DNA of 64,000 nt, taken from assembly GCA_963699165.1 (NCBI GenBank), contig OY969413.1, forward strand, positions 141,984 to 205,983. The letters are read 5' to 3'. Positions within the stretch are counted from its first letter, which is position 1, and each line of letters begins with the position of its first letter. The DNA is from Candidatus Kaiserbacteria bacterium. GTDB taxonomy: Bacteria > Patescibacteriota > Minisyncoccia > Phycocordibacterales > Phycocordibacteraceae. Shown here one piece after another: positions 3,360 through 54,447 of the stretch. Under the pieces are notes generated by a model that did no database searches, had not been told where the DNA came from, and saw nothing but the letters and a program-made list of their open reading frames with translations. The translations under genes were made by a program, and so were the position numbers.

Positions 3360-4291
3360 TGTACTAAGTCAACGCGTTGTTGACACTTTCTAGGTACGCC
3401 TCGAGTCTTCCGAATGGAGTTGTTCCGAGCGATTGGTGAATGCGGGTCTGGTTGTACCAGTCCACAAACGCATACAAATAGCGTCGGCGATGGGCTCGAG
3501 AGATGTGATTGGAACGTGTCTTCCCGTGCCATTCGGTCATGAGGGTTTTGATGAATCGCTCCGCTTTTCCATTGGTCCAGGGATGCTTCACTTTCGTGAA
3601 CGCTTGGCTCATGCCCGTTTCCCTGCAGAGTGCCGCCACCGGATGATCCGGTCGTCCCCGGTACTCGCTCCCGTTGTCGGAATAGATGCCGGTCACGGGG
3701 AACGGCAATACTCGCTTGCTCTCGGCGAGGAACATGGCGGCCGAGTATGCGGTCTTGTCGGGGAAGATATCGGCAAAGGCGGTACGAGAGTAGTCGTCAA
3801 TGGCGACAAATAGGTATTCTCTCGGTTGCGCGGCGGCTTCTCCTCGCAGGAGCGGCAGGCGCTTGGTATCGAGATGCAGCATTTCACCCGGTATCGATTT
3901 CTCGTATCGGTTCAATCGATGGGCTTTGCGGGCGAGCTTCTCTCCCACGCGCTTTTCGGTGCGAGCAAGCTTTTGGAACCCGTACAGGATGGTGCGATAT
4001 CGGTGATTCATCGAGGAACGATTCTCGAAGACGTTCAGTCGGGCATCTTTAAGTGTCTCGTATACGGTTTCTCGGGAGACTTTGTATTCTCGGGCCAAAT
4101 GGGTCGCTTGAGCTCCCATACCCCATCTGCGGAACATCTCACGCCGTTGGTACGGCAACAATTTGGTATTCTTGTGCATGCAAGAGGCGCTAACGATTAA
4201 ATGGTCTGAACACCAAAATCGTACCGCGCCTTTTGCGCTTTCAATGAACTCGTCGACGCGAAAAGTGTCAACAACCCGATACTAACGTACA
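3360..4291 (-). mobile_element. Single-copy IS481-family insertion sequence (distinct from the multi-copy IS481 element below) with 8-bp target-site duplication CGGGAAGC
   Basis: Imperfect terminal inverted repeats TGTACTAAGTCAACGCGTTGTTGACAC (3360-) versus reverse complement of ..GTGTCAACAACCCGATACTAACGTACA (-4291); identical CGGGAAGC at 3352-3359 and 4292-4299. Confidence 0.7.
3364..4179 (-). CDS. IS481-family DDE transposase (HTH + rve integrase core)
   Basis: 271 aa; LHLDTKRLP ... FVAIDDYSRTAFADIFPDKTAYSAAMFL ... SDNGSEY ... KVKHPWTNGKAERF ... YNQTRIHQSLG = DDE integrase core motifs. Confidence 0.85.
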   Translation of the reverse strand: MHKNTKLLPYQRREMFRRWGMGAQATHLAREYKVSRETVYETLKDARLNVFENRSSMNHRYRTILYGFQKLARTEKRVGEKLARKAHRLNRYEKSIPGEMLHLDTKRLPLLRGEAAAQPREYLFVAIDDYSRTAFADIFPDKTAYSAAMFLAESKRVLPFPVTGIYSDNGSEYRGRPDHPVAALCRETGMSQAFTKVKHPWTNGKAERFIKTLMTEWHGKTRSNHISRAHRRRYLYAFVDWYNQTRIHQSLGTTPFGRLEAYLESVNNALT

Positions 4292-4299
4292 CGGGAAGC

Positions 4300-5190
4300 T
4301 TGACAGATAAAATACAGTACGTATTCTGCTTCGAGACAACAGCACTCCGAAGGGTATTCAGACTCTGTTGGCACAGCTCCCGTATCATGGAAGCTATGTA
4401 CACGCTCAAACAAATTCCGTCTGAAGTGCAGATTAGAAAGTTTTTGCGGCGAACGTTGTTCGGAAAGAATGTGTTTTGCCCGCTCTGCCGCTCGCGCAGG
4501 ATTGTGCGGTACGAAGACCGGTACCGGTGTGTTGCCTGCCGCCGAAGGTTCTCGCTCCTCTCGCATACCTGGCTCTCAAACCTCAAGCTTCCGCTCCAGA
4601 CGTGGTGGATGCTCCTCTGGTGCTGGACGATACGAGAACCCGTCTTGCAGGCCATGGAGCTCACGCATTTGCCTGAACGAACGATACGCCGCTGGTATGC
4701 CACCTTTCGTGAGCATTTGCCCCAAGAAGAGTATATTCTCGAGCGTATCGTGCAGATGGACGAGGCATATTTCAAGAACGCAGCTCTCGTGATGGCCAAG
4801 CAGAAAGGAACGAGAAAGCTTGCCTATACCGTCATGCACAATCGCTTCCCGAACAAGACGGACGTGATGGACTTTCTCTTTGCCAAAGTGAAGCCGGGGA
4901 GCGAGTTGTGGACCGATGGCGGTTCGATATACCGGGGTGTCGGCAAGCGATGGCCGGTCTCCCACAGCAGAGACATTCATTCAAAATTCGAGTTCGAACA
5001 TACCTCCGAAATCGAAGGCGTGTTCGGCGTATACCGCACCTTTGTGCGGAGGATGTATCATCATCACTGGAGCGAGAACCTCGAGCAATACGTGAGGGAA
5101 TTCTGCTTCAGATTTTCCTCACCGGAATTGTTCGGAAATCCGCGCACTTACTTATTAAAATCATTAACGCTTGTGCCAACTCGTTCTTAA
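4300..5190 (+). CDS. IS1595-family (ISXO2-like) transposase with N-terminal zinc ribbon
   Basis: CPLCRSRRIVRYEDRYRCVACRRRFS zinc ribbon followed by DDE_Tnp_IS1595-like core (IVQMDEAYF ... LWTDGGSIY). True start may be the internal Met near 4390; element boundaries not resolved. Confidence 0.7.
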   Translation: MTDKIQYVFCFETTALRRVFRLCWHSSRIMEAMYTLKQIPSEVQIRKFLRRTLFGKNVFCPLCRSRRIVRYEDRYRCVACRRRFSLLSHTWLSNLKLPLQTWWMLLWCWTIREPVLQAMELTHLPERTIRRWYATFREHLPQEEYILERIVQMDEAYFKNAALVMAKQKGTRKLAYTVMHNRFPNKTDVMDFLFAKVKPGSELWTDGGSIYRGVGKRWPVSHSRDIHSKFEFEHTSEIEGVFGVYRTFVRRMYHHHWSENLEQYVREFCFRFSSPELFGNPRTYLLKSLTLVPTRS

Positions 5191-5221
5191 TACCCACTCC
5201 GAACGTCAAGGAGAATAATTC

Positions 5222-5746
5222 ATGGCAAATCGCGTCGCGGCCGTCCTCGTGATCCTGTTCCTCGCCGCTTCGATGGTGTCCCCGTCGATTGTTGCGGCCC
5301 AGGAAGCCCCGGTAGCGGCCTCGAAGGCAGATGTAACGCCGTCGCCGTCCGCCGAAACCATAGCCGGTCCAACCCCTACCCCGACCCCCTCGAATGGCAA
5401 CTATTCGGCGCGAACCAGGGAGGAGATGGCTCGCGTTGATGAGTCGGTTATCGACAGCGCCGGCTCCCGAAATACTCACCATGTTCTTCAGTACGCGGGT
5501 GCCGCATTGTTTGCGTGGGACATGTACGCCACGCAAGCTCGTGGCAATCAGTGCACAACGCCCGGTTGGATAGACCGCCCGATGTTCCATAATCCCGAAG
5601 TGTCGGTCGGATTCGGCATCGCGGTTGGCGCGATCATTCATTTCGTACCAAACAAGCCGTGGGGAAATGCGCTCCTCGGTCTGTTTGACGGCGTTGACGC
5701 GGTCAACGACCTCGCGTGGCGAAACAGGTGCAAGCCCGCCTCCTAA
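5222..5746 (+). CDS. Secreted hypothetical protein (signal peptide, Pro/Thr linker)
   Basis: N-terminus MANRVAAVLVILFLAASMVSPSIVAAQEAP is a classic signal peptide; followed by terminator hairpin. Confidence 0.5.
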   Translation: MANRVAAVLVILFLAASMVSPSIVAAQEAPVAASKADVTPSPSAETIAGPTPTPTPSNGNYSARTREEMARVDESVIDSAGSRNTHHVLQYAGAALFAWDMYATQARGNQCTTPGWIDRPMFHNPEVSVGFGIAVGAIIHFVPNKPWGNALLGLFDGVDAVNDLAWRNRCKPAS

Positions 5747-5751
5747 AACTA

Positions 5752-5783
5752 GCCCCCGCTCGCCGCATGCGACGAGCGGGGGC
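5752..5783. terminator. Bidirectional GC-rich hairpin terminator between 5222..5746 (+) and hisS-like (-)
   Basis: GCCCCCGCTCGCCGCATGCGACGAGCGGGGGC perfect stem-loop. Confidence 0.5.
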
Positions 5784-5802
5784 GCGTATTTGAATGACAA
5801 TA

Positions 5803-6945
5803 TTATGCAAATGTCCTCAACCGCTCCGCGAGATTGGCAATGGGCAGCATCGTTTCTTCCTGCGTCTGACGATTGCGCAGAATCGCCGAGCCCTCAAGCG
5901 CTTCTTTGCGTCCCATGATGAGGAGATACGGATTGGCGCGCGTCTCGGCGAGATGCAATTGCTCGGTGAGCGATTCGATGCCGATATTTTGCACGATAGG
6001 CACATGCGCTTTTTTAAAGTCCTCCGCGAGACGGATGGAAAGCCGTTTTGCCTCGTCGCCGATGTGGACGAACGTGAAGCGCAGGCGCGGCTGCGGCGGA
6101 TTTTTTACGACCTTTCCTTCCGTCGGCAGTTGGAGAATCGCACAGGTCGCATTGAACGGCGCTTTGGGAAAAAAGTGGCGGGTGAAGTCGCTGTAACGCG
6201 AACCCCATGCAAGCGTGCGGCCGGCGGCGCTGACTTCGAAACAGGTATCGTTCCAAACGTTGCCGCGGCTGATGAGGTTGCGCGCAAGTTCGTACGGAGT
6301 TTCCGTCATTTCAAGATATTCGAGCAAATCCTCAAAACGTTTGCGGCTCGCGTCCGAGAGCTGTTCCGTTGGGGCCGGAAGATCGTCGGCGTATTCGTTT
6401 GCGATGGCAAGTTCGGCCGCTTCAAACGTATCGCGCTTCGCGCAATTGACGCACTCCTCGGGCAATATCGCGGCGCGTTTCTTGAAAAAGTTCCCGAGCT
6501 CGCGCGCGTAGCGCGCGCGTGTCTCTTTGTCGCCCATGGAATTGATGCGAAGCACCGGTTCTTCGTGAAAAATGTCGCGGACAAGCGCGAGAAGCGCGCG
6601 GATGACGACGACGTCCGCAATCGCGCGGTCGCTCCCGAGCGCGTGGAATTGCACAATTGCTTTTTTCTGCGCCGGACGGCCGGGCGCGATATTGGTATGC
6701 CAAATGAAAAGCGGTTGGCGCGGATTCGGCACGGCTTCGATGTTTTGAACGTGCTTCAAAAAACCGGCGACGATTTCAGCGGAGGAATCGATCGAGACGC
6801 CCGCAAGCGATTCGGGATATACCGCCGGTTTGCGCGCGCCGCGCGCTTTGAGCGTAATCGCTGACAACGGCGTGAAGCCGTAGTATTGACCAACCGCATG
6901 CGCTTTGTGCAGGATTTCTTCGGCCGAAATAGTATCTCGCGTCAT
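5803..6945 (-). CDS. hisS: Divergent histidyl-tRNA synthetase-like class II aaRS (HisS/HisZ family)
   Basis: KKAIVQFHALGSD (cf. RYRQFHQ), LRINSMGDKETRARYARE, RGNVWNDTCFEV (cf. RGLDYYnrTVFE), GSRYSDF (cf. GGRYD) and C-terminal anticodon-binding-like LLIMGRKEALEGSAILRNRQTQEE. Start MTRD at 6945 overlaps lepB stop as ATGA. Confidence 0.55.
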   Translation of the reverse strand: MTRDTISAEEILHKAHAVGQYYGFTPLSAITLKARGARKPAVYPESLAGVSIDSSAEIVAGFLKHVQNIEAVPNPRQPLFIWHTNIAPGRPAQKKAIVQFHALGSDRAIADVVVIRALLALVRDIFHEEPVLRINSMGDKETRARYARELGNFFKKRAAILPEECVNCAKRDTFEAAELAIANEYADDLPAPTEQLSDASRKRFEDLLEYLEMTETPYELARNLISRGNVWNDTCFEVSAAGRTLAWGSRYSDFTRHFFPKAPFNATCAILQLPTEGKVVKNPPQPRLRFTFVHIGDEAKRLSIRLAEDFKKAHVPIVQNIGIESLTEQLHLAETRANPYLLIMGRKEALEGSAILRNRQTQEETMLPIANLAERLRTFA

Positions 6946-7553
6946 GGCGTCAGGGGATTTGTCGCGGCAGTTGCCGCTGAGGAGCTTGCATATGAAGCGC
7001 GGCCGGGAAGCGCGCCGAATTCCCGTATGGGAAGCACGCGCAGGTCGACGCGGCCGATGATGTTCTTTCTCGGCAACGGTCCCCACACGCGGCTGTCTGA
7101 GCTGTTCGGCCGGTTGTCGCCCATGACGAAGTATTCGCCCGGATTGAGCGTAACGGTGTTCGTGTATGTCGCGTCTTCGTTCACGATATAGGGCTCGCTG
7201 AGCGTGAAGCTTTGACCGTTCGGTTCGGTGATTGAGACGACGCCGTTGTCAATGGCGACCGTTTCGCCCGGCAAACCGATGATTCGCTTGATGTAAAATA
7301 CGGACGGGTCGCCCGGGTAGCGGAAGACGATGACATCGCCGCGCGCCGGCGCTTTTAGGTCGTACACAAGCTCGTCGACGATGAGATAGTCGAGGTTTTC
7401 GAACGTGGGGTGCATCGACTCGCCGTCCACGACGAACGGGGACGCGACGAAGATGCGAATCGGTATTACAAAGACTACGATGAGAAATGCAAGCGTGAAA
7501 AGATCCTTCAGAAGACCCTTTCCTGTGTCATTCATAAAGGCATTGTACTTGCT
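6942..7553 (-). CDS. lepB: Signal peptidase I
   Basis: VVDGESMHPTF ... YIKRIIGLPGE ... GDNRPNSSDSRVWG: Ser/Lys dyad boxes of SPase I. The longer ORF 6942..8099 is an artefactual N-terminal extension overlapping pth. Confidence 0.8.
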   Translation of the reverse strand, partial: SKYNAFMNDTGKGLLKDLFTLAFLIVVFVIPIRIFVASPFVVDGESMHPTFENLDYLIVDELVYDLKAPARGDVIVFRYPGDPSVFYIKRIIGLPGETVAIDNGVVSITEPNGQSFTLSEPYIVNEDATYTNTVTLNPGEYFVMGDNRPNSSDSRVWGPLPRKNIIGRVDLRVLPIREFGALPGRASYASSSAATAATNPLTP

Positions 7554-7674
7554 CCGCACTAACTTGCAAGCAATCCTCAAAGAAGTCATGTTGCGATCGC
7601 ATGGAAAAGTCAGTGCCGGGGCGCATGCACACACGGTACGCAAGTTTTTGGAAGCACATGGTACTATCGTTTGC

Positions 7675-8271
7675 ATGGCACTCGTAATCGTGGGGCTTGG
7701 AAATCCGGGAAAGGAATACGAAAAGACGCGGCACAACGCGGGAAGAAGCGCCGTCGAGCTTTTGGCGAAGCAAGAGGGCTTCGATGAATTCGTTTTTAAT
7801 AAAACCAGCAATGCGCTCGTGAGCAAAGGCGCAATTGAAGGAGAGAATGCGGCCTTAGTACTTCCCGAAACGATGATGAATCTTTCGGGGAAGGCGGTTG
7901 CGGCGTTTGTGAAGTCGCCGAAAGCGGCAAAAACTCTTTTGGTCGTGCATGACGACCTCGATTTGCCGCTCGGCACCGTCAAAATGGTTTTCGGGCGCGG
8001 CAGCGGCGGCCATAAGGGTGTCGAAAGCATCATGCGCGCAATTAAAACGAAGGACTTTGCGCGCATCCGTATCGGCATCAGCGCGGAAGGCAAACGCAAT
8101 CAAGCGAAAAAGGTCTCGGGCGAAGAAAAAGTCATCAAACACGTCATCGGGAAGTTTAAGTCGACCGAAGAGGCGGCGCTCAAGAAAGTTTTAATGAAAT
8201 CCGCGGAAGCCATCCGTCTTTTTGCGTCCGAAGGAATCGAGTCGGCAACGCAATTTGCGAATACGAGATAG
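7675..8271 (+). CDS. pth: Peptidyl-tRNA hydrolase
   Basis: MALVIVGLGNPGKEYEKTRHNAGRSAVELLA ... MNLSGKAV ... HDDLDLPLGTVKM ... GSGGHKG (Pth active-site H, D, N motifs). Confidence 0.85.
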   Translation: MALVIVGLGNPGKEYEKTRHNAGRSAVELLAKQEGFDEFVFNKTSNALVSKGAIEGENAALVLPETMMNLSGKAVAAFVKSPKAAKTLLVVHDDLDLPLGTVKMVFGRGSGGHKGVESIMRAIKTKDFARIRIGISAEGKRNQAKKVSGEEKVIKHVIGKFKSTEEAALKKVLMKSAEAIRLFASEGIESATQFANTR

Positions 8272-8280
8272 GTTGCGCAT

Positions 8281-8310
8281 ATTGACATGGCATTGTCAAT
8301 ATGCTAGTGT
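8281..8310 (+). promoter_or_regulatory. Perfect palindrome ATTGACAtggcaTTGTCAAT overlapping a -35 TTGACA / -10 TAGTGT promoter upstream of the 3D-domain gene; candidate operator
   Basis: 7-bp inverted repeat with 5-bp spacer at 8281-8300, -10-like hexamer at 8305-8310. Confidence 0.4.
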
Positions 8311-8351
8311 GCTAAATAACGAGGCAGTTGCTTACTGTTTCGACAAAACCA

Positions 8352-8924
8352 ATGTCAAATCTACTAGGAGCCCTAATCGGCTTTTTGCTTTTGTCGGGGG
8401 CGATGGCGCAATCGGCGACCCCCCAGGCAATAGCTCCGGTTCAACCGAGTTACCCCGTAACTCTGACGGCCTATAACGCCGTACCGGCGCAGACCAAAAG
8501 CGACCCCTCGACAACCGCTTCCGGCGCATACTCGAATCCCGAGATTGTCGCCGCCCGCTCCCGTGACCTTGCGGATGAACTGCCGTTCGGCACGATTATT
8601 GAAATCGACGCTCCCGCAGATCCGGATTCGGACGGCAAATGCGGTTATGATACCGTCGCGCCAATCATCGGGTATCGAGTCATCGCCGATACGATGAATG
8701 ACCGGTACACCAACCACATCGATGTTTTATTTAATACCAAGGCGAACTACATCATGAACGACGGAAGCGTGAAGAATGCAAGCAATGTGCTTGGCGTGTG
8801 TAGTGGCGTAACGGCCCGCGTTGTCGGATATATCGATATGAAAAATAACCCGCTTCCAAAGACACAGTCGGAACTTGCCGCAATCGTCGAGGGGCGCGCA
8901 TCTGCACCGCTTGCGGATAAATAA
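8352..8924 (+). CDS. Secreted 3D-domain (MltA/RlpA-like) cell-wall protein
   Basis: Signal peptide MSNLLGALIGFLLLSGAMAQS; LTAYNAVPAQTKSDPSTTASGAYSNPEIVAARS..FGTIIEID matches the 3D domain (conserved D residues). Confidence 0.6.
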   Translation: MSNLLGALIGFLLLSGAMAQSATPQAIAPVQPSYPVTLTAYNAVPAQTKSDPSTTASGAYSNPEIVAARSRDLADELPFGTIIEIDAPADPDSDGKCGYDTVAPIIGYRVIADTMNDRYTNHIDVLFNTKANYIMNDGSVKNASNVLGVCSGVTARVVGYIDMKNNPLPKTQSELAAIVEGRASAPLADK

Positions 8925-8944
8925 TAAAAATCGGTGCGCAAAAA

Positions 8945-8979
8945 AGCGCGGTCCGCCTTAGGCGGGCCGCGCATTTTTG
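8945..8979 (+). terminator. Rho-independent terminator after 3D-domain gene
   Basis: GCGCGGTCCGCCttagGCGGGCCGCGC followed by TTTTT. Confidence 0.5.
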
Positions 8980-8994
8980 CGCTATGCTTTCAAG

Positions 8995-9648
8995 ATGCAG
9001 CGTTTAACGAGAGCGGAGTCCGGTTTGACCGCGGCGGAGTACGAAGTGCTGTCGCGGCTTTCAACGCCGCAAAAAATCCAGGACTTTCTCGATGCCATCC
9101 CGATGAATTGGGAAAAAAAGGGCGACACGCATATGTCGCCGCGTGCCGTTCTTCGAGCGAACAAGGCGCACTGCATCGAAGGTGCAATGCTCGCGGCGGT
9201 GGCGCTCTGGATTAACGGCGAGCCGCCTTTGCTTATGGATTTGTCGGCGCGGCTTGGAAAAGGAGATGTCGATCATGTTATTGCGCTCTACAAGCGCGGC
9301 TGATTTTACGGTGCTATCAGCAAAACCAATCACGCAAGCATTCGATTCCGCGACCCGGTGTACCGCACGCCGCGCGAACTGGCGCTTTCGTATTTTCACG
9401 AATGGTTTATGAACGAGACGGCCGAAAAAACGCTTGAATGCTATTCGAAACCGCTCGATATGCGGCGGCTCGGCTTCGGCTGGATTACCGCCGAAGAAGA
9501 TCTATGGAATGTGGATGATGCGTTGAATTCGCTCACTCATTACAATCTGGTGCCGAAAGGGAATTGGCGTCATGTTCGAAAAGCCGACCCGATGGAACTC
9601 AAAGCCGGCCGCCTCGTTGAGTGGCCGGAGTCCGACCCGCGCACCTAA
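8995..9648 (+). pseudogene. Conserved-looking hypothetical gene interrupted by a single in-frame TGA (9301-9303); two ORF halves in the same frame
   Basis: ORFs 8977..9303 and 9358..9648 are both in frame 1; read-through gives ..VDHVIALYKRG*FYGAISKTNHASIRFRDPVYRTPRELALSYFHEW.. The first ATG (8977) lies inside the upstream terminator, so start taken at MQRL (8995). Confidence 0.5.
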
Positions 9649-9723
9649 CGGTCTGCGAGGGTCTGACCTTCTCAAAGGTCGAATTTGATAAGAGCTCGCC
9701 GAGTATGCTATAAATACTTCATC

Positions 9724-10128
9724 ATGAGTTCGGGAAAATCCACATACCCCGCCCGATTGCGGGTTGGGAGGTCGAGCGCCGGACTCGGTCTGTATGCAAT
9801 GCGGCCGTTTAAAAAAGGCGAACGCATAATCGAATACTTCGGGCGGGAAATATCGAAGAAAGAAGAATACACGAGCCGCAGCAAATATCTCTTCGAGGTC
9901 AGCTCGCGAAAGACGATTGACGGCACGACGCGCAAGAACACGGCGCGATATATCAATCATTCCTGCCGGCCGAATTGCGAGCCGAATATCGTCCGCGGAC
10001 GCATTTTCATCGACGCGATTCGCGGCATCAAAGCCGGGGAAGAATTGACGTACGACTACGGGAAAGATTATTTTGACGAGCACATCAAGCCGCACGGCTG
10101 CCGATGCGCGAAGTGCAGGCCGAAATAG
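9724..10128 (+). CDS. SET-domain protein-lysine methyltransferase-like protein
   Basis: GLGLYAMRPFKKGERIIEYFGREISKKE ... ARYINHSCRPNCEP ... GEELTYDYG ... HGCRCAKCR (NHSC, ELTYDY and post-SET Cys cluster). Promoter-like TTGATA N17 TATAAA upstream. Confidence 0.75.
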   Translation: MSSGKSTYPARLRVGRSSAGLGLYAMRPFKKGERIIEYFGREISKKEEYTSRSKYLFEVSSRKTIDGTTRKNTARYINHSCRPNCEPNIVRGRIFIDAIRGIKAGEELTYDYGKDYFDEHIKPHGCRCAKCRPK

Positions 10129-10130
10129 AA

Positions 10131-10157
10131 AAAGCCCCGCTTTCGCGGGGCTTTTTC
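10131..10157. terminator. Bidirectional terminator between SET gene and cspA
   Basis: AAAAAGCCCCGCtttcGCGGGGCTTTTTCC. Confidence 0.6.
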
Positions 10158-10168
10158 CAACAAGATGA

Positions 10169-10378
10169 TTACACCTTGCTGACGTTGAGAGCGTTGGGGC
10201 CTTTCGGGCTGTCGCCGATTTCAAAGGAAACCTTGTCTCCTTCCTGGAGCTCGTCGAACGAGACGTTCTGGAGTTCGTTGGAATGGAAGAAAAGGTCCTT
10301 TGCACCCGGCTGCGAGCCGTCGACTTTGATGAAGCCGAAACCCTTGTCGTTCTTCTTGATGACGGTACCGTTTTGCAT
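10169..10378 (-). CDS. cspA: Cold-shock protein (CspA family)
   Basis: MQNGTVIKKNDKGFGFIKVDGSQPGAKDLFFHSNEL: RNP1/RNP2 motifs of CSD. Confidence 0.9.
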   Translation of the reverse strand: MQNGTVIKKNDKGFGFIKVDGSQPGAKDLFFHSNELQNVSFDELQEGDKVSFEIGDSPKGPNALNVSKV

Positions 10379-10507
10379 GCTGCAGATAGATATACGTGAC
10401 TAAAATATCAAATCAGTAGCCGAGATAGAAGCTCGATCCCACTTCTCTGGATCAGGCGCTGGTTGATAAATACAGAGTATCAGATATGATATTAATTGTC
10501 AATGAAG

Positions 10508-11587
10508 TGTACGCGTCCAGTACTTTTGGCAGTCCCCGACGGTTAATGTACACACAATATACCGCAAGGGGGACACCATGCCGAGCGACTGGTGCGGGCG
10601 TTTGGTGTTGTACCAGATCAGCCAGTCGACAAGCTTCAGATTGAAGGAATGAATATCGTCCCGCAGCAGGCCCCGATTCAGCATGATGAAGTCCTCGGAG
10701 ACGGTGCGATTGAATCGTTCGACGTGGGCATTCATCTTGGGAGTGCGGGGGCGGGTGTGAAAGTGCGTGAGCCCGAGTTCGGCACAGGCATCCTCGAAGT
10801 GTTTGGCGAACTCGCTCCCGTTGTCGGTCTGCAACTCGTCGATATCGAAGGGGCAAACCTCGATGACTCGGCGAAGGAAGTCGTCCGCGCTTCTCGACGA
10901 GTGGTTCGTATACGCGCCCGCAAAGGCGAACTTCCGCTCCACGTCCACTGCCGTGAGGACGTACCGCTTCACGCCGTCGATGAAGCGGACGACGGTATCG
11001 AGCTCCATGCCGCGCTTGCCGGTGCGGCGAAGCTTGGTACGGCGTTTCTGCGGTGTTTCCGTGTGATTGCCCGTACGTGCGTGGAACGAGAGCCGGCTCT
11101 GCTGCGGGAGCAGACCGCGGTTCTTCAAATCCAGAATGACCCGCCCAACGTATGACTCCGACACGGAGTACCCTTCTTCGCGCAGGAGAACGGCAAGCTT
11201 TGCTTTCCCAAGCCGGGGATGCGCCTGTCGTTCGCGGATGATGAAATCCTCGACCTCGGGCAGAACAGTCCTCCTTCGACGCGCCTTCGGCGCAGTGCTC
11301 TTCGGGTCAAGTGCATCAATGCGGCCCTCGTGGGCTTTGAGTTCCTCCTTCCAGCGATACAAGGTGCGCTCCGAGGTGCCAAAGGCGTCGTATGTGGCCT
11401 CCGTCCCGTGCATGTCCCAGAATCCCAATATCTTCACCCGTCTGTCGACTTCCTTTGGTTTCCGCATATGCCGCAATCGTATCGTCCTTTCCCACATGCT
11501 CAACCAGCCCTTCGTACCCCTGAAATTGCTTCTGATGCGCATATATCCTCGGTTATGAGGACTGCCAAATGTATCTGAACTTATGCA
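10508..11587 (-). mobile_element. IS481-family insertion sequence, multi-copy type, copy 1 (1080 bp; ends TGTACGCG...TTATGCA; TSD TGAAG)
   Basis: Identical to copies at 14328, 28564 and 54500. Imperfect terminal IRs share TTTGGCAGTCC. 5-bp direct repeat TGAAG at 10503-10507 and 11588-11592. Sits about 130 bp upstream of cspA. Confidence 0.9.
10509..11542 (-). CDS. IS481-family transposase (HTH + DDE integrase core)
   Basis: 344 aa; MRIRSNFRG ... LDTVVRFIDGVKRYVLTAVDVERKF ... QTDNGSEF ... HFHTRPRTPKMNAHVERFNRTV ... YNTKRPHQSLG. ORF tails after CQKYWTRT differ between copies because they run into flanking DNA. Confidence 0.9.
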
Positions 11588-13687: not shown

Positions 13688-14318
13688 ATTTTTTAGTATA
13701 CAACGGCCTGCAAACAAACGCTCCCGCGCCGCCCTGGCATATTTTTCACCATCGGTATAAGATGCGCCATTCGTTGGCCGACGCTCTCAAAGCCGGCTAC
13801 CAAGTATACGGTCTAACCGACGAGGGTTACCTCGTCCGCACGCGAACGGACCGCGGATGGGCACTGGCGCTCGCCGTCCTGCGACCCAAGGGTGTGTACG
13901 CCTAGGCCGCCCGCCCCTCATCACTCATTTCTGTAGACCTCCCTAACCGGAGGTCTCATCCTGTAAGGCATACGTTTTCGCCTTTATTTTTTATACTGAA
14001 ACTTTTAGCAAAAAAATAAACCGCCTGTTGAGGCGGTGGGGCATGAGTGGTTATCGTTCTAGGCAGGGGTATAATGATTGTTCGATTCTTTGCACGAATC
14101 TCCTTCGTCGCGCGACAGAGGGTCGAGAGTCCGATGTGCTGCCACCAGGTGGCCGAAGGGACTTTTTCTATTTGGATTGAGAGCGACCTGTCTGCCGCAT
14201 CCCGGGCACTGTGCGGTTTTTACCGCTTCGCTAACCTGCTCTGGTGTAGCATTCACTGTTTTTCCTCCGAAATGGTTTGAGAACTCTGATTCCAAATTAC
14301 ACAATGCCGTAGCGGCAG

Positions 14319-15362
14319 TCAAGTTTTTGTACGCGTCCAGTACTTTTGGCAGTCCCCGACGGTTAATGTACACACAATATACCGCAAGGGGGACACCATG
14401 CCGAGCGACTGGTGCGGGCGTTTGGTGTTGTACCAGATCAGCCAGTCGACAAGCTTCAGATTGAAGGAATGAATATCGTCCCGCAGCAGGCCCCGATTCA
14501 GCATGATGAAGTCCTCGGACACGGTGCGATTGAATCGTTCGACGTGGGCATTCATCTTGGGAGTGCGGGGGCGGGTGTGAAAGTGCGTGAGCCCGAGTTC
14601 GGCACAGGCATCCTCGAAGTGTTTGGCGAACTCGCTCCCGTTGTCGGTCTGCAACTCGTCGATATCGAAGGGGCAAACCTCGATGACTCGGCGAAGGAAG
14701 TCGTCCGCGCTTCTCGACGAGTGGTTCGTATACGCGCCCGCAAAGGCGAACTTCCGCTCCACGTCCACTGCCGTGAGGACGTACCGCTTCACGCCGTCGA
14801 TGAAGCGGACGACGGTATCGAGCTCCATGCCGCGCTTGCCGGTGCGGCGAAGCTTGGTACGGCGTTTCTGCGGTGTTTCCGTGTGATTGCCCGTACGTGC
14901 GTGGAACGAGAGCCGGCTCTGCTGCGGGAGCAGACCGCGGTTCTTCAAATCCAGAATGACCCGCCCAACGTATGACTCCGACACGGAGTACCCTTCTTCG
15001 CGCAGGAGAACGGCAAGCTTTGCTTTCCCAAGCCGGGGATGCGCCTGTCGTTCGCGGATGATGAAATCCTCGACCTCGGGCAGAACAGTCCTCCTTCGAC
15101 GCGCCTTCGGCGCAGTGCTCTTCGGGTCAAGTGCATCAATGCGGCCCTCGTGGGCTTTGAGTTCCTCCTTCCAGCGATACAAGGTGCGCTCCGAGGTGCC
15201 AAAGGCGTCGTATGTGGCCTCCGTCCCGTGCATGTCCCAGAATCCCAATATCTTCACCCGTCTGTCGACTTCCTTTGGTTTCCGCATATGCCGCAATCGT
15301 ATCGTCCTTTCCCACATGCTCAACCAGCCCTTCGTACCCCTGAAATTGCTTCTGATGCGCAT
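14319..15362 (-). CDS. IS481-family transposase (copy 2)
   Basis: Same protein as copy 1; the ORF-track N-terminal extension to 15419 lies outside the element and is not part of it. Confidence 0.85.
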   Translation of the reverse strand: MRIRSNFRGTKGWLSMWERTIRLRHMRKPKEVDRRVKILGFWDMHGTEATYDAFGTSERTLYRWKEELKAHEGRIDALDPKSTAPKARRRRTVLPEVEDFIIRERQAHPRLGKAKLAVLLREEGYSVSESYVGRVILDLKNRGLLPQQSRLSFHARTGNHTETPQKRRTKLRRTGKRGMELDTVVRFIDGVKRYVLTAVDVERKFAFAGAYTNHSSRSADDFLRRVIEVCPFDIDELQTDNGSEFAKHFEDACAELGLTHFHTRPRTPKMNAHVERFNRTVSEDFIMLNRGLLRDDIHSFNLKLVDWLIWYNTKRPHQSLGMVSPLRYIVCTLTVGDCQKYWTRTKT

Positions 15363-15407
15363 ATATCCTCGGTTATGAGGACTGCCAAATGTATCTGAAC
15401 TTATGCA
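14328..15407 (-). mobile_element. IS481-family insertion sequence copy 2 (TSD GTTTT)
   Basis: 1080 bp identical element; GTTTT at 14323-14327 and 15408-15412. Left flank shares 15 nt (CGGCAGTCAAGTTTT) with the flank of the IS fragment at 51752. Confidence 0.9.
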
Positions 15408-15427
15408 GTTTTCCGCCAAAATACGGC

Positions 15428-20106: not shown

Positions 20107-20772
20107 TTAATTGCCGGTGGTGAGGTTGCTCGCGGGCGTCATGGTGACATTGTCCGAACGATCAATCGACCGGATTACGTAATTGTACGTAGTGCTCGGT
20201 TGAAGTCCGGTAATCGTAATCGATTCGTTTGTCTGAGGCGTAGTGTTTTGCGCGAGCGTGCCGCTGATATAGGGCTGCTGGAAGGGCGCGGTCGCCTCGT
20301 TTGATTGAATCGGTTGCGTGCTGTAATACACCTGTCCCTGCGCCGGTTCGTTCGTCGACCAGCTCAGGGTGGCGCCATTCGAGTTTGTCGTTGCCGAGAA
20401 ATTCGATATTACCGGGACGCTCGTATCGAGTCCGAGACCCGAGTTCATCACGGCATTGATTTTTGCCAAGGTCGCCGGTCCAACGCGGCCGACTTGCGCG
20501 ATGCCGTAGCTAACTTGAAACTGCGTAACAGCGGCCTCTGTGAGGGCGCCGAAGTATCCCGTAACGGCTCCCTGTGGATAGATAAGCGGATTCGTTGCGA
20601 GGAATTGTTGAAGCGCCGTCACGTCGCTGCCGGTCGAACCGAGGCCCAGTTGCGTTGTGAGCGCCGCATTCGCATGCCCGGAACCGGCGGTGAACAAAAC
20701 GGCAAGAAACAGCACCGAAAACACGGATGTCGGCAAGAGATTTTTGCTTACGGAGATTGTGTGCATATTCAT
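20107..20772 (-). CDS. Secreted peptidoglycan-binding (PG_binding_1) plus fibronectin-III-like domain protein
   Basis: Signal peptide; TGSDVTALQQFLATNPLIYPQGAVTGYFGALTEAAVTQFQVSYGIAQVGRVGPAT; C-terminal beta-sandwich-like region. Confidence 0.55.
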   Translation of the reverse strand: MNMHTISVSKNLLPTSVFSVLFLAVLFTAGSGHANAALTTQLGLGSTGSDVTALQQFLATNPLIYPQGAVTGYFGALTEAAVTQFQVSYGIAQVGRVGPATLAKINAVMNSGLGLDTSVPVISNFSATTNSNGATLSWSTNEPAQGQVYYSTQPIQSNEATAPFQQPYISGTLAQNTTPQTNESITITGLQPSTTYNYVIRSIDRSDNVTMTPASNLTTGN

Positions 20773-20889
20773 AAAGGGTATTGAGACAATGCCGATAAAT
20801 AATAAGATGCTGGTCGAATGCTCGGCCGCGTATCCGGCCTCTATGGGCGGTGCCGTTGCATGAAGAGTATGATGACAGCCGCGGCGCGG

Positions 20890-21573
20890 TCATTTCTGTC
20901 CTTTGATGCCCTTGATTTGCCGTTCCAGTTCCTTAATTTGGTTTTCCAATTTGTTTGTTCGTTCGGAAATATTTTCTTCCAACTTCTCCTCCATGTGATG
21001 CGTGTGATTGACGAGCGTTTCCGCGACGCTCATAATTTCAGTCACGTCTTCGATTGCCAGCAAAATGATATCGGGAAACAATTTCGAACCGGCGCTGCCG
21101 GCGAAATAAAATTGCCGCGCGTTCACCAGCAATACTTTTCGCCCGACAAACGGAAAATCGTGCACAAGTTCGAATCCTTTAAAAAAAGCATTTGCGGGTA
21201 AAATATCTTCCAGCAATCTTCTCAATTCGGGAATATTCCACTGTCCGTTTCCGAGTTCATACACCGGGACGAGCTCGGCATCCGTGCGATTAATCTGAAA
21301 TGTCCGGCAAAACTCGTCGTTTACCGCCGTAACGCGCAATTCCGTGTCCAAAATCAATACCGGTTCGCGCGCTATGTCGACGACCGCTTTGACGTACGTC
21401 CATCCTTCTTCCCATACTCGTGCAATGAAATCGTCCCACACGGATGCGGATGTTTTTTGAGGATTATTTTTTATCGCCATATCAGTGAGCCGCACTGCGC
21501 CTCCAATTATTGCGGCGGCGTGTAAACTGGCGCCGCGAATCGCATCTCGATTTGCGGCGCAAAAAATCCGCAA
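20890..21573 (-). CDS. Kinase-less PAS-domain protein with C-terminal coiled coil (paralog of the PAS region of the histidine kinase at 24133..25176)
   Basis: EPVLILDTELRVTAVNDEFCRTFQINRTDAELVPVYELGNGQWNIPELRRLLEDILP aligns with EPLIVLDEDLRVVAASRSFYEDFRLSKESSVDKKFYELDGGKWDIPELRTLLEEVIP of the kinase. It ends in EEKLEENISERTNKLENQIKELERQIKG, with no H-box or ATPase. True start may be the internal Met near 21480. Confidence 0.6.
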   Translation of the reverse strand: MRIFCAANRDAIRGASLHAAAIIGGAVRLTDMAIKNNPQKTSASVWDDFIARVWEEGWTYVKAVVDIAREPVLILDTELRVTAVNDEFCRTFQINRTDAELVPVYELGNGQWNIPELRRLLEDILPANAFFKGFELVHDFPFVGRKVLLVNARQFYFAGSAGSKLFPDIILLAIEDVTEIMSVAETLVNHTHHMEEKLEENISERTNKLENQIKELERQIKGIKGQK

Positions 21574-21631
21574 ATGAAATAGGCGCGAATTTTATCTCAA
21601 AAAGACATTCACCGTACTTTCACTGTAATAG

Positions 21632-26538: not shown

Positions 26539-27599
26539 GGCGACTAGTCTTTTGAATTCGAACGTTTGATACATTGAGCGAATGAAAAAACCTCCGGCGG
26601 TGCGCACTTCACAAGGTCCGAACGAGACGAAATACAGATACTGTTAGCGAAGGGATACTCTTTGCAAGATGTCGGAGATGCACTCGACCGACCGAAGAGT
26701 GTCATATGGTACGAGACGCAAAAGAAGAGGAAGGGACGGCCGTATGATGCTGCATATGCGCATCACATTTCATACGTACGAAGGAAATACAGCCGAGCGG
26801 TCGGCAAGATGATTGCTCTCGACCCGAAGCTCCGGAAGTTCATCGAGGCGCATCTCTTCGACGATCAGTCGCCCGAAAACATCTCACTTCGATTGAAGCG
26901 GATCGAGAAGGATATCGGATATGCTTCATCCTCGGCTATACGCCGATATATCAAGAGCCCGTATGGCAGACGGATCGAGTCGCATCGAGCAAAGTTATTC
27001 AAGAAGAGGCGACGCTCTCGGCCATCGAAACCACACATTGCCGACAAGCGCCTGATCGACAAACGACCGAGCAAAATCAACAAGCGATGGGGATTGGGTC
27101 ACATGGAGGGCGACTTCATCGTGTCGGGCAAGAGCGGTCAAGGCATCATTCTTGGTCTGCGGGATCGCAGGGTGCGCAAAAACCTGCTGGAGCGGATCCT
27201 GCCAGTGTCAGTGCGAAACGTGGAGCGAGCGCTTCGCAGAATGAAAAAGCGGTATCCCGAGATGCAGACCATCACATTCGACAACGATATTCTCTTTCTC
27301 GAACACAAACGGCTAGAGAAGGTGCTTGGGGTGAAGATATATTTCTGTCATGTGCATGCGCCATGGGAGAAGCCATCAATCGAGAATCTGAACAAGGACT
27401 TGCGGCGGTACATCCCGAAAAGCTCGGATATTTCAAAGTATTCAAAAAGATTTGTGCAGAAACTCGAAGCAAAGATGAATCGCCGCTTCATGGATGTGCT
27501 CGGTTCACTCACGCCAGATGAGGCGTATGCTGCGGAAAAGAAACAACGCGCTCAGAGGAGCGCAAAAAACCGTCGTTCGAATTGAGGGGTTTGGGTGCC
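26539..27599 (+). mobile_element. IS30-family insertion sequence copy A (1061 bp, TSD CGC)
   Basis: Identical to copies at 35958..37018 and 46880..47940 (both minus). Ends GGCGACTAGTCTTTTGAATTCGAACG / CGTTCGAATTGAGGGGTTTGGGTGCC form imperfect IRs. CGC at 26536-38 and 27600-02. Confidence 0.85.
26662..27585 (+). CDS. IS30-family transposase
   Basis: 307 aa; N-terminal HTH, DDE core HMEGDFIVSGKS ... ITFDNDILF ... CHVHAPWEKPSIENLNKDLRRY. Confidence 0.9.
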   Translation: MQDVGDALDRPKSVIWYETQKKRKGRPYDAAYAHHISYVRRKYSRAVGKMIALDPKLRKFIEAHLFDDQSPENISLRLKRIEKDIGYASSSAIRRYIKSPYGRRIESHRAKLFKKRRRSRPSKPHIADKRLIDKRPSKINKRWGLGHMEGDFIVSGKSGQGIILGLRDRRVRKNLLERILPVSVRNVERALRRMKKRYPEMQTITFDNDILFLEHKRLEKVLGVKIYFCHVHAPWEKPSIENLNKDLRRYIPKSSDISKYSKRFVQKLEAKMNRRFMDVLGSLTPDEAYAAEKKQRAQRSAKNRRSN

Positions 27600-28489: not shown

Positions 28490-28554
28490 TTTCTACCCCG
28501 ATGTATCGACGACCAATCGCGTCTGAGCCGACTATACTACAACCGTCGCATTTG

Positions 28555-29598
28555 TCAGCGACATGTACGCGTCCAGTACTTTTGGCAGTCCCCGACGGTT
28601 AATGTACACACAATATACCGCAAGGGGGACACCATGCCGAGCGACTGGTGCGGGCGTTTGGTGTTGTACCAGATCAGCCAGTCGACAAGCTTCAGATTGA
28701 AGGAATGAATATCGTCCCGCAGCAGGCCCCGATTCAGCATGATGAAGTCCTCGGAGACGGTGCGATTGAATCGTTCGACGTGGGCATTCATCTTGGGAGT
28801 GCGGGGGCGGGTGTGAAAGTGCGTGAGCCCGAGTTCGGCACAGGCATCCTCGAAGTGTTTGGCGAACTCGCTCCCGTTGTCGGTCTGCAACTCGTCGATA
28901 TCGAAGGGGCAAACCTCGATGACTCGGCGAAGGAAGTCGTCCGCGCTTCTCGACGAGTGGTTCGTATACGCGCCCGCAAAGGCGAACTTCCGCTCCACGT
29001 CCACTGCCGTGAGGACGTACCGCTTCACGCCGTCGATGAAGCGGACGACGGTATCGAGCTCCATGCCGCGCTTGCCGGTGCGGCGAAGCTTGGTACGGCG
29101 TTTCTGCGGTGTTTCCGTGTGATTGCCCGTACGTGCGTGGAACGAGAGCCGGCTCTGCTGCGGGAGCAGACCGCGGTTCTTCAAATCCAGAATGACCCGC
29201 CCAACGTATGACTCCGACACGGAGTACCCTTCTTCGCGCAGGAGAACGGCAAGCTTTGCTTTCCCAAGCCGGGGATGCGCCTGTCGTTCGCGGATGATGA
29301 AATCCTCGACCTCGGGCAGAACAGTCCTCCTTCGACGCGCCTTCGGCGCAGTGCTCTTCGGGTCAAGTGCATCAATGCGGCCCTCGTGGGCTTTGAGTTC
29401 CTCCTTCCAGCGATACAAGGTGCGCTCCGAGGTGCCAAAGGCGTCGTATGCGGCCTCCGTCCCGTGCATGTCCCAGAATCCCAATATCTTCACCCGTCTG
29501 TCGACTTCCTTTGGTTTCCGCATATGCCGCAATCGTATCGTCCTTTCCCACATGCTCAACCAGCCCTTCGTACCCCTGAAATTGCTTCTGATGTGCAT
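28555..29598 (-). CDS. IS481-family transposase (copy 3)
   Basis: Same protein; one M-to-H substitution near N-terminus (MHIRSNFRG). Confidence 0.85.
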   Translation of the reverse strand: MHIRSNFRGTKGWLSMWERTIRLRHMRKPKEVDRRVKILGFWDMHGTEAAYDAFGTSERTLYRWKEELKAHEGRIDALDPKSTAPKARRRRTVLPEVEDFIIRERQAHPRLGKAKLAVLLREEGYSVSESYVGRVILDLKNRGLLPQQSRLSFHARTGNHTETPQKRRTKLRRTGKRGMELDTVVRFIDGVKRYVLTAVDVERKFAFAGAYTNHSSRSADDFLRRVIEVCPFDIDELQTDNGSEFAKHFEDACAELGLTHFHTRPRTPKMNAHVERFNRTVSEDFIMLNRGLLRDDIHSFNLKLVDWLIWYNTKRPHQSLGMVSPLRYIVCTLTVGDCQKYWTRTCR

Positions 29599-29643
29599 AT
29601 ATCCTCGGTTATGAGGACTGCCAAATGTATCTGAACTTATGCA
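28564..29643 (-). mobile_element. IS481-family insertion sequence copy 3 (TSD CGACA)
   Basis: CGACA at 28559-28563 and 29644-29648; inserted about 50 bp upstream of tsaC start. Confidence 0.9.
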
Positions 29644-29696
29644 CGACAACGTGTTGGACGCGGGACAATTTCCTCACATCTGATATGTTTTCTGGA

Positions 29697-35957: not shown

Positions 35958-37018
35958 GGCACCCAAACCCCTCAATTCGAACGACGGTTTTTTGCGCTCC
36001 TCTGAGCGCGTTGTTTCTTTTCCGCAGCATACGCCTCATCTGGCGTGAGTGAACCGAGCACATCCATGAAGCGGCGATTCATCTTTGCTTCGAGTTTCTG
36101 CACAAATCTTTTTGAATACTTTGAAATATCCGAGCTTTTCGGGATGTACCGCCGCAAGTCCTTGTTCAGATTCTCGATTGATGGCTTCTCCCATGGCGCA
36201 TGCACATGACAGAAATATATCTTCACCCCAAGCACCTTCTCTAGCCGTTTGTGTTCGAGAAAGAGAATATCGTTGTCGAATGTGATGGTCTGCATCTCGG
36301 GATACCGCTTTTTCATTCTGCGAAGCGCTCGCTCCACGTTTCGCACTGACACTGGCAGGATCCGCTCCAGCAGGTTTTTGCGCACCCTGCGATCCCGCAG
36401 ACCAAGAATGATGCCTTGACCGCTCTTGCCCGACACGATGAAGTCGCCCTCCATGTGACCCAATCCCCATCGCTTGTTGATTTTGCTCGGTCGTTTGTCG
36501 ATCAGGCGCTTGTCGGCAATGTGTGGTTTCGATGGCCGAGAGCGTCGCCTCTTCTTGAATACCTTTGCTCGATGCGACTCGATCCGTCTGCCATACGGGC
36601 TCTTGATATATCGGCGTATAGCCGAGGATGAAGCATATCCGATATCCTTCTCGATCCGCTTCAATCGAAGTGAGATGTTTTCGGGCGACTGATCGTCGAA
36701 GAGATGCGCCTCGATGAACTTCCGGAGCTTCGGGTCGAGAGCAATCATCTTGCCGACCGCTCGGCTGTATTTCCTTCGTACGTATGAAATGTGATGCGCA
36801 TATGCAGCATCATACGGCCGTCCCTTCCTCTTCTTTTGCGTCTCGTACCATATGACACTCTTCGGTCGGTCGAGTGCATCTCCGACATCTTGCAAAGAGT
36901 ATCCCTTCGCTAACAGTATCTGTATTTCGTCTCGTTCGGACCTTGTGAAGTGCGCACCGCCGGAGGTTTTTTCATTCGCTCAATGTATCAAACGTTCGAA
37001 TTCAAAAGACCAGTCGCC
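35958..37018 (-). mobile_element. IS30-family insertion sequence copy B (TSD AAA on plus strand)
   Basis: AAA at 35955-57 and 37019-21; inverted relative to copy A. Confidence 0.85.
35972..36895 (-). CDS. IS30-family transposase (copy B)
   Basis: Same 307-aa protein with one K/V substitution (RAKVFKK). Confidence 0.9.
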   Translation of the reverse strand: MQDVGDALDRPKSVIWYETQKKRKGRPYDAAYAHHISYVRRKYSRAVGKMIALDPKLRKFIEAHLFDDQSPENISLRLKRIEKDIGYASSSAIRRYIKSPYGRRIESHRAKVFKKRRRSRPSKPHIADKRLIDKRPSKINKRWGLGHMEGDFIVSGKSGQGIILGLRDRRVRKNLLERILPVSVRNVERALRRMKKRYPEMQTITFDNDILFLEHKRLEKVLGVKIYFCHVHAPWEKPSIENLNKDLRRYIPKSSDISKYSKRFVQKLEAKMNRRFMDVLGSLTPDEAYAAEKKQRAQRSAKNRRSN

Positions 37019-46879: not shown

Positions 46880-47940
46880 GGCACCCAAACCCCTCAATTC
46901 GAACGACGGTTTTTTGCGCTCCTCTGAGCGCGTTGTTTCTTTTCCGCAGCATACGCCTCATCTGGCGTGAGTGAACCGAGCACATCCATGAAGCGGCGAT
47001 TCATCTTTGCTTCGAGTTTCTGCACAAATCTTTTTGAATACTTTGAAATATCCGAGCTTTTCGGGATGTACCGCCGCAAGTCCTTGTTCAGATTCTCGAT
47101 TGATGGCTTCTCCCATGGCGCATGCACATGACAGAAATATATCTTCACCCCAAGCACCTTCTCTAGCCGTTTGTGTTCGAGAAAGAGAATATCGTTGTCG
47201 AATGTGATGGTCTGCATCTCGGGATACCGCTTTTTCATTCTGCGAAGCGCTCGCTCCACGTTTCGCACTGACACTGGCAGGATCCGCTCCAGCAGGTTTT
47301 TGCGCACCCTGCGATCCCGCAGACCAAGAATGATGCCTTGACCGCTCTTGCCCGACACGATGAAGTCGCCCTCCATGTGACCCAATCCCCATCGCTTGTT
47401 GATTTTGCTCGGTCGTTTGTCGATCAGGCGCTTGTCGGCAATGTGTGGTTTCGATGGCCGAGAGCGTCGCCTCTTCTTGAATAACTTTGCTCGATGCGAC
47501 TCGATCCGTCTGCCATACGGGCTCTTGATATATCGGCGTATAGCCGAGGATGAAGCATATCCGATATCCTTCTCGATCCGCTTCAATCGAAGTGAGATGT
47601 TTTCGGGCGACTGATCGTCGAAGAGATGCGCCTCGATGAACTTCCGGAGCTTCGGGTCGAGAGCAATCATCTTGCCGACCGCTCGGCTGTATTTCCTTCG
47701 TACGTATGAAATGTGATGCGCATATGCAGCATCATACGGCCGTCCCTTCCTCTTCTTTTGCGTCTCGTACCATATGACACTCTTCGGTCGGTCGAGTGCA
47801 TCTCCGACATCTTGCAAAGAGTATCCCTTCGCTAACAGTATCTGTATTTCGTCTCGTTCGGACCTTGTGAAGTGCGCACCGCCGGAGGTTTTTTCATTCG
47901 CTCAATGTATCAAACGTTCGAATTCAAAAGACCAGTCGCC
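46880..47940 (-). mobile_element. IS30-family insertion sequence copy C (imperfect TSD)
   Basis: Identical 1061 bp; flanks give TTG/GTG (2 of 3) in element orientation; about 28 bp upstream of the KGG gene start. Confidence 0.85.
46894..47817 (-). CDS. IS30-family transposase (copy C)
   Basis: Identical to copy A protein. Confidence 0.9.
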   Translation of the reverse strand: MQDVGDALDRPKSVIWYETQKKRKGRPYDAAYAHHISYVRRKYSRAVGKMIALDPKLRKFIEAHLFDDQSPENISLRLKRIEKDIGYASSSAIRRYIKSPYGRRIESHRAKLFKKRRRSRPSKPHIADKRLIDKRPSKINKRWGLGHMEGDFIVSGKSGQGIILGLRDRRVRKNLLERILPVSVRNVERALRRMKKRYPEMQTITFDNDILFLEHKRLEKVLGVKIYFCHVHAPWEKPSIENLNKDLRRYIPKSSDISKYSKRFVQKLEAKMNRRFMDVLGSLTPDEAYAAEKKQRAQRSAKNRRSN

Positions 47941-51751: not shown

Positions 51752-51895
51752 TGTACGCGTCCAGTACTTTTGGCAGTCCCCGACGGTTAATGTACACACA
51801 ATATACCGCAAGGGGGACACCATGCCGAGCGACTGGTGCGGGCGTTTGGTGTTGTACCAGATCAGCCAGTCGACAAGCTTCAGATTGAAGGAATG
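51752..51895 (-). mobile_element. 144-bp fragment (transposase-stop end) of the multi-copy IS481 element, truncated by the IS3 element
   Basis: Identical to the first 144 bp of the full copies; diverges exactly where the IS3 inverted repeat begins. Confidence 0.85.
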
Positions 51896-51923
51896 TACCG
51901 ACCCCTATTCTTCAGACCACTTC

Positions 51924-54387: not shown

Positions 54388-54447
54388 GATTCGAACCTAC
54401 AACCAACGCCTTAACAGGGCGCTGCTCTACCATTGAGCTACACCGGA
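54376..54447 (-). tRNA. tRNA-Asn (anticodon GUU)
   Basis: Reverse complement reads TCCGGTG ta GCTC AATGGTA GAGC a GCGCC CTGTTAA GGCGT tggtt GTAGG TTCGAAT CCTAC CGCCGGA g: 7-bp acceptor, D-arm, anticodon loop CUGUUAA, T-arm with TTCGAAT. Confidence 0.8.

Follow-up and report, generated by a model that had tools for sequence, protein, structure and literature searches.

A probable recent glycine-to-opal nonsense mutation in a CPR-C4-family protease gene of a Kaiserbacteria-like genome

Introduction

Nascent pseudogenes are known in bacterial lineages in which insertion sequences (ISs) are expanding, such as Shigella, Sodalis glossinidius and Mycobacterium leprae. Within the Patescibacteria superphylum, the closest described case of an in-frame TGA at a glycine-conserved position is code 25 of Gracilibacteria/Absconditabacteria (SR1), in which UGA is read as Gly. 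This use of UGA has been reported as restricted to the Gracilibacteria/JAEDAM01 (SR1) lineage, and its presence at sites that hold Gly in orthologs was the signature by which it was found in SR1 (review PMC13293708). [quoted passage not shown] The catalytic triad of CPR-C4 is non-canonical: its third member, beside Cys61 and His93, is the backbone carbonyl of Leu115, and Ser108 is located near the His. The catalytic Cys and His (C61 and H93) are 99.9% conserved (PMC9108980).

Both nonsense mutation as a phenomenon and the CPR-C4 family are therefore already known. Here we describe a gene in which the two meet, in a 64-kb stretch of Kaiserbacteria-like DNA, the whole of which is referred to as the window. 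An original prediction, made from the sequence of this stretch, had pointed to a gene split by a single TGA and had proposed several explanations for it, from a nonsense mutation to a sequencing error or rare programmed read-through.

A CPR-C4-family gene interrupted by a single in-frame TGA

The gene extends on the forward strand over 8995..9648 and comprises 217 codons plus TAA. Its start (ATG 8995), a TGA at codon 103 (9301..9303) and the terminal TAA (9646-9648) share one frame, and no second internal stop is present in the 217 codons, which bears out the original prediction that a single in-frame TGA splits the gene; the reading of the sequence across the stop (..ALYKRG*FYGAISK..) was also correct. 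The 217-residue read-through product, with X at the stop, was used as a query and matched more than 5000 proteins of ~217 aa. The best 120 matches are nearly all 217 aa long, with 96-100% query coverage and 71-81% identity, and the organisms named among them are Candidatus Kaiserbacteria or other Parcubacteria/Patescibacteria groups. Because the read-through product is matched full-length by these proteins, the two open reading frames (ORFs) must be parts of a single gene that do not adjoin by chance, and the impression that the read-through protein looks intact was well founded. The halves had been given as 8977..9303 and 9358..9648; they do belong to one gene, but the ortholog alignment places the start codon at ATG 8995, where orthologs begin (MKRLTRAQSGLT), rather than at TTG 8977. 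The gene is present in a single copy within the 64-kb window.

The TGA divides the gene into an N-terminal fragment of 102 aa (8995..9300, + strand) and a stranded C-terminal portion of 114 codons (9304..9648, + strand). The latter encodes, downstream of residue 103, FYGAISK and TPRELALSYFHEWFMNETAEK, together with Ser109, Ile116, the KTNH and RFRDP motifs and the remaining fold, and all its invariant residues are kept. A weak hairpin (7 pairs) followed by CTGATTTTAC was also observed at 9281-9310, with a terminator-like score to which the mutated T contributes by adding to the T count; it is probably a meaningless consensus match within coding sequence.

Regarding the identity of the family, searches of Pfam and NCBIfam with the protein matched no family model, and it was only the search against PDB sequences that named it. 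A profile built from the window read-through and 22 orthologs (alignment A1) matches the CPR-C4 chains 7OB6/7PJO with E=4e-64 over profile positions 6-214. On the basis of this similarity the interrupted gene is assigned to the CPR-C4 family. In the numbering of the window protein, Cys60 corresponds to C61 of CPR-C4, His94 to H93, Ser109 to S108 and Ile116 to L115. Both C60 (in the motif HCIEGA) and H94 (in DHV) are present in the window copy, within its N-terminal fragment, and are invariant in alignments A1 and A2. The window copy departs from the family in that the ~217-aa ORF is interrupted by the TGA at 9301-9303, and in that the positions equivalent to Ser108 and to the Leu115 carbonyl are absent from the translated product, S109 and I116 being encoded downstream of the TGA and reachable by read-through only.

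The residue and codon replaced by the stop

The original prediction had proposed that a TGG-to-TGA change removed a tryptophan and had suggested an ortholog alignment to see whether Trp is conserved at this site. Such comparisons gave a different answer. The column of the stop contains Gly in 19 and Asn in 3 of the 22 aligned orthologs, while the 120 closest proteins carry Gly (105), Asn (11), Asp (2), Ala (1) and Ser (1). At the DNA level, 55 of 80 species-representative loci have a GGN codon at the site (GGC 24, GGG 16, GGA 8, GGT 7), Arg is found in 15 and other residues in 10, and neither TGG nor a stop occurs in any of them. The solved CPR-C4 protein has Gly102 at the equivalent position. 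Trp at codon 103 was accordingly rejected, as it is absent from the orthologs, proteins and loci alike; a conserved Trp does exist, two residues further on. Since the orthologs hold Gly, encoded by GGN, and never Trp, the ancestral codon was almost certainly GGA rather than TGG, and a G-to-T transversion at 9301 would have produced the TGA, the direction of the change being deduced from the orthologs.

Absence of decay downstream of the stop

At columns conserved in at least 90% of the sequences, the window copy shows 2 deviations in the 59 positions before the stop and 2 in the 71 after it, the means for intact orthologs being 1.6 and 1.4 deviations, respectively, and 38% of these orthologs deviate downstream at least as often as the window copy. 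Mean identity to orthologs, 0.75 in the N half and 0.78 in the C half, does not differ from that among intact orthologs. No second lesion other than the TGA was found when the 217 codons were compared with orthologs. As the downstream half shows no decay, these data suggest that the mutation is recent, or else that the gene is still under selection.

The TGA recurs in two further assemblies

The N- and C-terminal fragments are recorded with the exact same sequence in the NCBI assembly GCA_049279115.1 (contig JBAPNL010000090.1, 5563 bp), and the same TGA-bearing fragments appear in the Logan assembly of SRR27973122 (5369 bp, samples_with_this_contig = 2). These contigs are 100% identical to window positions 5071-10633 and 5168-10536, respectively, and both break at IS copies, like short-read assemblies. 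In particular, JBAPNL010000090.1 ends 126 nt inside an IS copy found four more times in the window, which is the mark that a k=127 short-read assembly leaves where a repeat interrupts it. The change at 9301 is a substitution, with no insertion or deletion, and it is situated outside any homopolymer. Because the identical TGA is present in two further assemblies, which match the window perfectly over 5.4-5.6 kb, and because it is a substitution outside a homopolymer, the sequencing error considered in the original prediction is unlikely.

The three TGA-bearing assemblies may come from one sample or population. A scan of JGI metagenomes for an intact allele of the same strain, using a 26-nt flank pattern with N at the mutated base, gave 0 matches, and searching for the exact sequence of either gene half or of the neighboring SET protein returned only the same two TGA-bearing contigs. 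The closest intact ortholog protein is 81% identical.

TGA works as a terminator in the window

Several lines of evidence bear on whether TGA could be recoded or read through. In a greedy longest-ORF set of 74 long ORFs, some of them spurious, 31 end on TAA, 27 on TGA and 16 on TAG. The TGA-ended ORFs include transposases and also conserved genes in which the stop follows 5-20 aa after the end of the Pfam domain. Thus, MurA ends on TGA 15 aa past its domain (the EPSP_synthase match reaches model position 414/417 at residue 444/459), Bax1-I ends on a TGATAG tandem stop (model 207/207 at residue 220/225), NUDIX ends on TGA (model 132/134 at residue 142/155), and a bestrophin-like protein has a TGA end likewise soon after its domain. 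The two features that would be expected under code 25, namely many in-frame TGAs at Gly sites and the loss of TGA as a terminator, are both absent within the window.

Two other pairs of same-frame ORFs separated by a single TGA were detected, both on the reverse strand, and were rejected as cases of recoding. In the first (20107-21591, TGA at 20890), a cytoplasmic PAS protein precedes a peptidoglycan-binding protein that is secreted and has a signal peptide of its own; in the second (57088-57990, TGA at 57703), a 95-aa protein precedes peptide deformylase. These are distinct genes that by coincidence have no TAA or TAG between them, so the statement that no other gene here uses an in-frame TGA holds.

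The search for decoding elements was negative as well. The only tRNA in the 64-kb window is tRNA-Asn, and neither a tRNA with a UCA anticodon nor a tRNA-Sec was found. The fold of 9295-9365, around and after the TGA, has a minimum free energy of -12.5 kcal/mol and is weaker than that of shuffled sequences (z=+1.06), the Rfam search gave no family match, and no SECIS-like hairpin was detected. Selenocysteine was consequently rejected, with the SECIS hairpin absent and the relatives holding Gly, Asn, Asp or Arg and never Cys at the site. None of the CPR-C4 homologs at the 80 related loci (species representatives) has an in-frame stop, and a conserved stop at the site, as would be looked for in programmed read-through, occurs in 0/80 loci and 0/120 proteins. 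Given that TGA terminates neighboring genes, that a SECIS-like hairpin is lacking and that no related locus carries an in-frame stop, recoding of TGA here is very unlikely. The earlier view that code 4 or 25 is improbable is in this way confirmed by the 27 of 74 ORFs that end on TGA and by the single in-frame case, the DNA being moderately GC-rich (window mean ~54%). Rare programmed read-through, which had been left as an option, finds no support in view of the missing stop in the 80 relatives and the lack of downstream structure.

Predicted consequence for the protein

An AlphaFold2 model of an 81%-identical ortholog, obtained with database proteins as input, has a moderate pLDDT of 72 and a pTM of 0.75. 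In this model, residues 102-103 constitute a beta-hairpin turn between strand 93-101, which contains His94, and strand 104-108, which leads to Ser109, a location that would fit with the Gly/Asn/Asp preference at the site. Normal translation would proceed as follows. Once a G-to-T change at 9301 had turned the GGA codon of Gly103 into TGA, ribosomes would terminate after Gly102 and release a 102-residue fragment. This fragment would retain Cys60 and His94 and would be devoid of the next beta-strand with Ser109, of the third triad position (the carbonyl of 116) and of 114 residues of the fold and the dimer, among which are the invariant G106, A107, K110, T111, N112, H113, R117, F118, R119, D120 and P121. 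The enzyme would thus be lost or nearly lost, and we infer a loss of protease activity from the residues that are missing.

Transcription and neighbors of the gene

A strong intrinsic-terminator-like hairpin of the upstream gene (8946..8978, + strand; 12 pairs, 11 of them GC, followed by a T-run) precedes the CPR-C4 gene, and a separate transcript therefore probably begins at the latter. ATG 8995 has a TATGCT box (8983-8988) 6 nt ahead of it and no Shine-Dalgarno, and for this reason the CPR-C4 mRNA is likely to be leaderless. The same arrangement, with a -10-like TAnnnT box 6-12 nt upstream and no Shine-Dalgarno, was observed at ATGs 8995, 9724, 19301, 25176 (-), 32567, 41174 and 10378 (-), and suggests that leaderless mRNAs may be widespread in this genome.

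The order of the locus (a 198-aa gene, CPR-C4, SET and the cold-shock gene CSD) is syntenic with ~20 related genomes. The adjacency of CPR-C4 and a SET-domain (lysine methyltransferase-like) gene, which together occupy 8995-10128 in the window, was seen in ~19 CPR genomes, including metagenome-assembled genomes labeled as Moranbacteria and Vogelbacteria (loci L003-L024, L034, L037, L038 and L041). This conserved pairing contrasts with the description of CPR-C4, where gene context gave no functional hint (PMC9108980). Elsewhere in the window, two further genes deserve mention. One is a full-length L-lactate permease (41174-42931; Pfam Lactate_perm, E=1e-165), in a host that is a small-genome, symbiont-type bacterium. 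The other is a 380-aa HisRS-like protein (5803-6945, -) that matches the C-terminal two-thirds of the hisS model only, with 75 bits against a cut-off of 287, and that could be a divergent or paralogous HisRS/HisZ-like protein.

A high load of mobile elements

The window carries ~11 mobile-element genes in 64 kb, a very high IS load for a Patescibacterium. They include four 100% identical IS481-like copies (at ~10.5, 14.3, 28.6 and 54.5 kb) plus a fragment at 51752-51877, three IS30 copies of 1061 nt that are also 100% identical, a single IS3 element, an IS1595 transposase and a second IS481-like gene. The IS and mobile-element stretches lie at 3364-5190, 10496-11560, 14316-15420, 26539-27599, 28552-29650, 35958-37018, 46880-47940, 51752-52990 and 54488-55590. 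One of the IS481-like copies separates the cold-shock gene from yceG; in relatives these two genes are direct or near neighbors. In addition, a large serine recombinase gene (Recombinase and Zn_ribbon_recom domains, 53038-54447), flanked by IS3 and IS481-like elements, overlaps by 13 nt the 3' end of tRNA-Asn (54375-54447, -), and this site may mark the edge of an integrated element. The identical copies suggest a recent IS burst. Such a burst would agree with a population under weak purifying selection, where a newly arisen nonsense allele might be retained even in a conserved gene. Our literature search on pseudogenes or ISs in Kaiserbacteria found nothing relevant.

Discussion

The reading that we consider very probable is that Gly103 was converted into an opal codon by a recent and lineage-specific nonsense mutation, giving rise to a nascent pseudogene in a CPR-C4-family protease gene, within a Kaiserbacteria-like genome that would also be undergoing an IS burst. 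A fresh nonsense mutation was among the explanations first proposed, and it is the best supported by the Gly of the orthologs, the intact downstream half and the occurrence of the TGA in further assemblies. The stop, the assignment to the family and the use of TGA as a terminator all enter into this reading, to which a link between the lesion and relaxed selection may tentatively be added. The counter-point is the strong conservation of the family, with none of the 80 species representatives having an in-frame stop. One would not expect a CPR-C4 gene so conserved to be lost, and the allele could be a short-lived or slightly deleterious one. A perfectly preserved downstream half is also what would be seen with no real lesion at all, that is, if the TGA had arisen in sequencing or assembly, or were a minority allele taken up into the consensus, in an organism that really has GGA and an intact gene; moreover, this is a single-base substitution in one strain only, with no independent strain bearing the TGA. 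Such an artefact is nevertheless improbable when the same base is found in three assemblies from different pipelines, two of which look short-read and break at IS repeats, when the Logan contig is counted in two samples and when the site is a substitution rather than an indel, outside a homopolymer. The preserved downstream half could likewise be put down to a leaky UGA, where near-cognate read-through (e.g., by tRNA-Trp) would yield some full-length protease and keep the gene partly functional and selected. UGA is the leakiest stop codon in bacteria, and homologs accept G, N, D, A, S, R, K or E at the surface beta-turn where it lies. However, the base after the stop is U, and UGAU is a strong termination context in E. 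coli, although this may not hold for the Patescibacteria phylum; no stimulatory structure follows the stop (fold z +1.06), the stop is conserved in no relative, and recency explains the preservation of the downstream half equally well, all of which leaves functional leakiness with little probability.

Programmed recoding, whether to Gly (the code 25 of Gracilibacteria/SR1) or to selenocysteine, could be invoked because the host is a Patescibacterium and the site is Gly in orthologs, as in the cases from which UGA=Gly was recognized in SR1 (PMC13293708). This match is a weak coincidence, since only 8 sense codons, GGA among them, are a single step away from TGA, and recoding becomes extremely improbable when one considers that there is one such TGA in 64 kb, that TGA ends 27 of 74 ORFs, including MurA, Bax1-I, NUDIX and transposases, that GC is 54% and UGA=Gly has been reported only in Gracilibacteria/JAEDAM01 (PMC13293708), and that the window is devoid of a UCA-anticodon tRNA and of tRNA-Sec, with no SECIS-like hairpin and no Rfam match at the site; selenocysteine would furthermore predict Cys in the orthologs, which have Gly. 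A variant of this idea, with scarcely any probability, is that the Kaiserbacteria-like lineage is in an early and ambiguous phase of UGA-to-Gly capture, in which an occasional UGA at a Gly site would be decoded through tRNA-Gly(UCA) or efficient suppression while UGA is still the main terminator; if this were true, the CPR-C4 gene would be fully functional here. It is also hardly conceivable that the 102-aa N-terminal product and a C-terminal product of 79-96 aa are made separately and reassemble as a functional split protease. Gene callers do annotate downstream ORFs of 96 aa (GTG 9358) and 79 aa (ATG 9409), but residues 104-121 (or 104-138) would be absent from both pieces, and with them the invariant G106, A107, K110, T111, N112, H113, R117 and R119, as well as Ser109 and position 116. 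Furthermore, both starts lack a Shine-Dalgarno, and GTG 9358 also lacks a promoter-like box. ATG 9409 is preceded at 12 nt by a TATTTT, the letters of which are fixed by the conserved SYFHEWF codons, and a split homolog occurs in 0/80 loci.

If the preferred explanation of a nascent pseudogene is accepted, annotation should join the two ORFs (8995-9303 and 9358-9648) into a single CPR-C4-family pseudogene that contains an internal stop, and should not list them as two hypothetical proteins. The case also calls for caution, in that an in-frame TGA at a Gly site in a Patescibacterium is no evidence for code 25 when the neighboring genes end on TGA. If the allele is fixed, it would represent a natural knockout in a clade where nearly all members otherwise have this protease (0/80 relatives disrupted), and it would be mildly useful for judging the dispensability of CPR-C4; beyond annotation, its importance is little.

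Comparison with known systems

As in the pseudogenes of Shigella, Sodalis and M. leprae, one disabling point mutation is found here in an otherwise intact conserved gene, in the company of many 100% identical IS copies. Unlike in those lineages, the 64 kb covered here contain no second point-mutation pseudogene. With code 25 of Gracilibacteria/Absconditabacteria (SR1) the locus shares its place in the Patescibacteria superphylum and an in-frame TGA at a Gly-conserved position. It differs from SR1 in having a single instance in 64 kb, TGA as a working terminator, a GC content of 54% and no tRNA-Gly(UCA) in the window, and in belonging to a lineage outside the reported recoding clade. Regarding CPR-C4 itself, the window copy is distinguished by a TGA that falls prematurely where CPR-C4 has G102, with normal translation giving the first 102 residues only, by a loop before the His that is longer by 2 residues, and by its Kaiserbacteria-like host, the source of CPR-C4 being thermophilic and Adlerbacteria-like. 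The encoded protein resembles CPR-C4 in its whole-length sequence match (E=4e-64, positions 6-214) and its length of ~217-221 aa. It also shares with it the conserved catalytic Cys and His, the Ser (S109), the KTNH and RFRDP motifs and the third position of the triad (I116).
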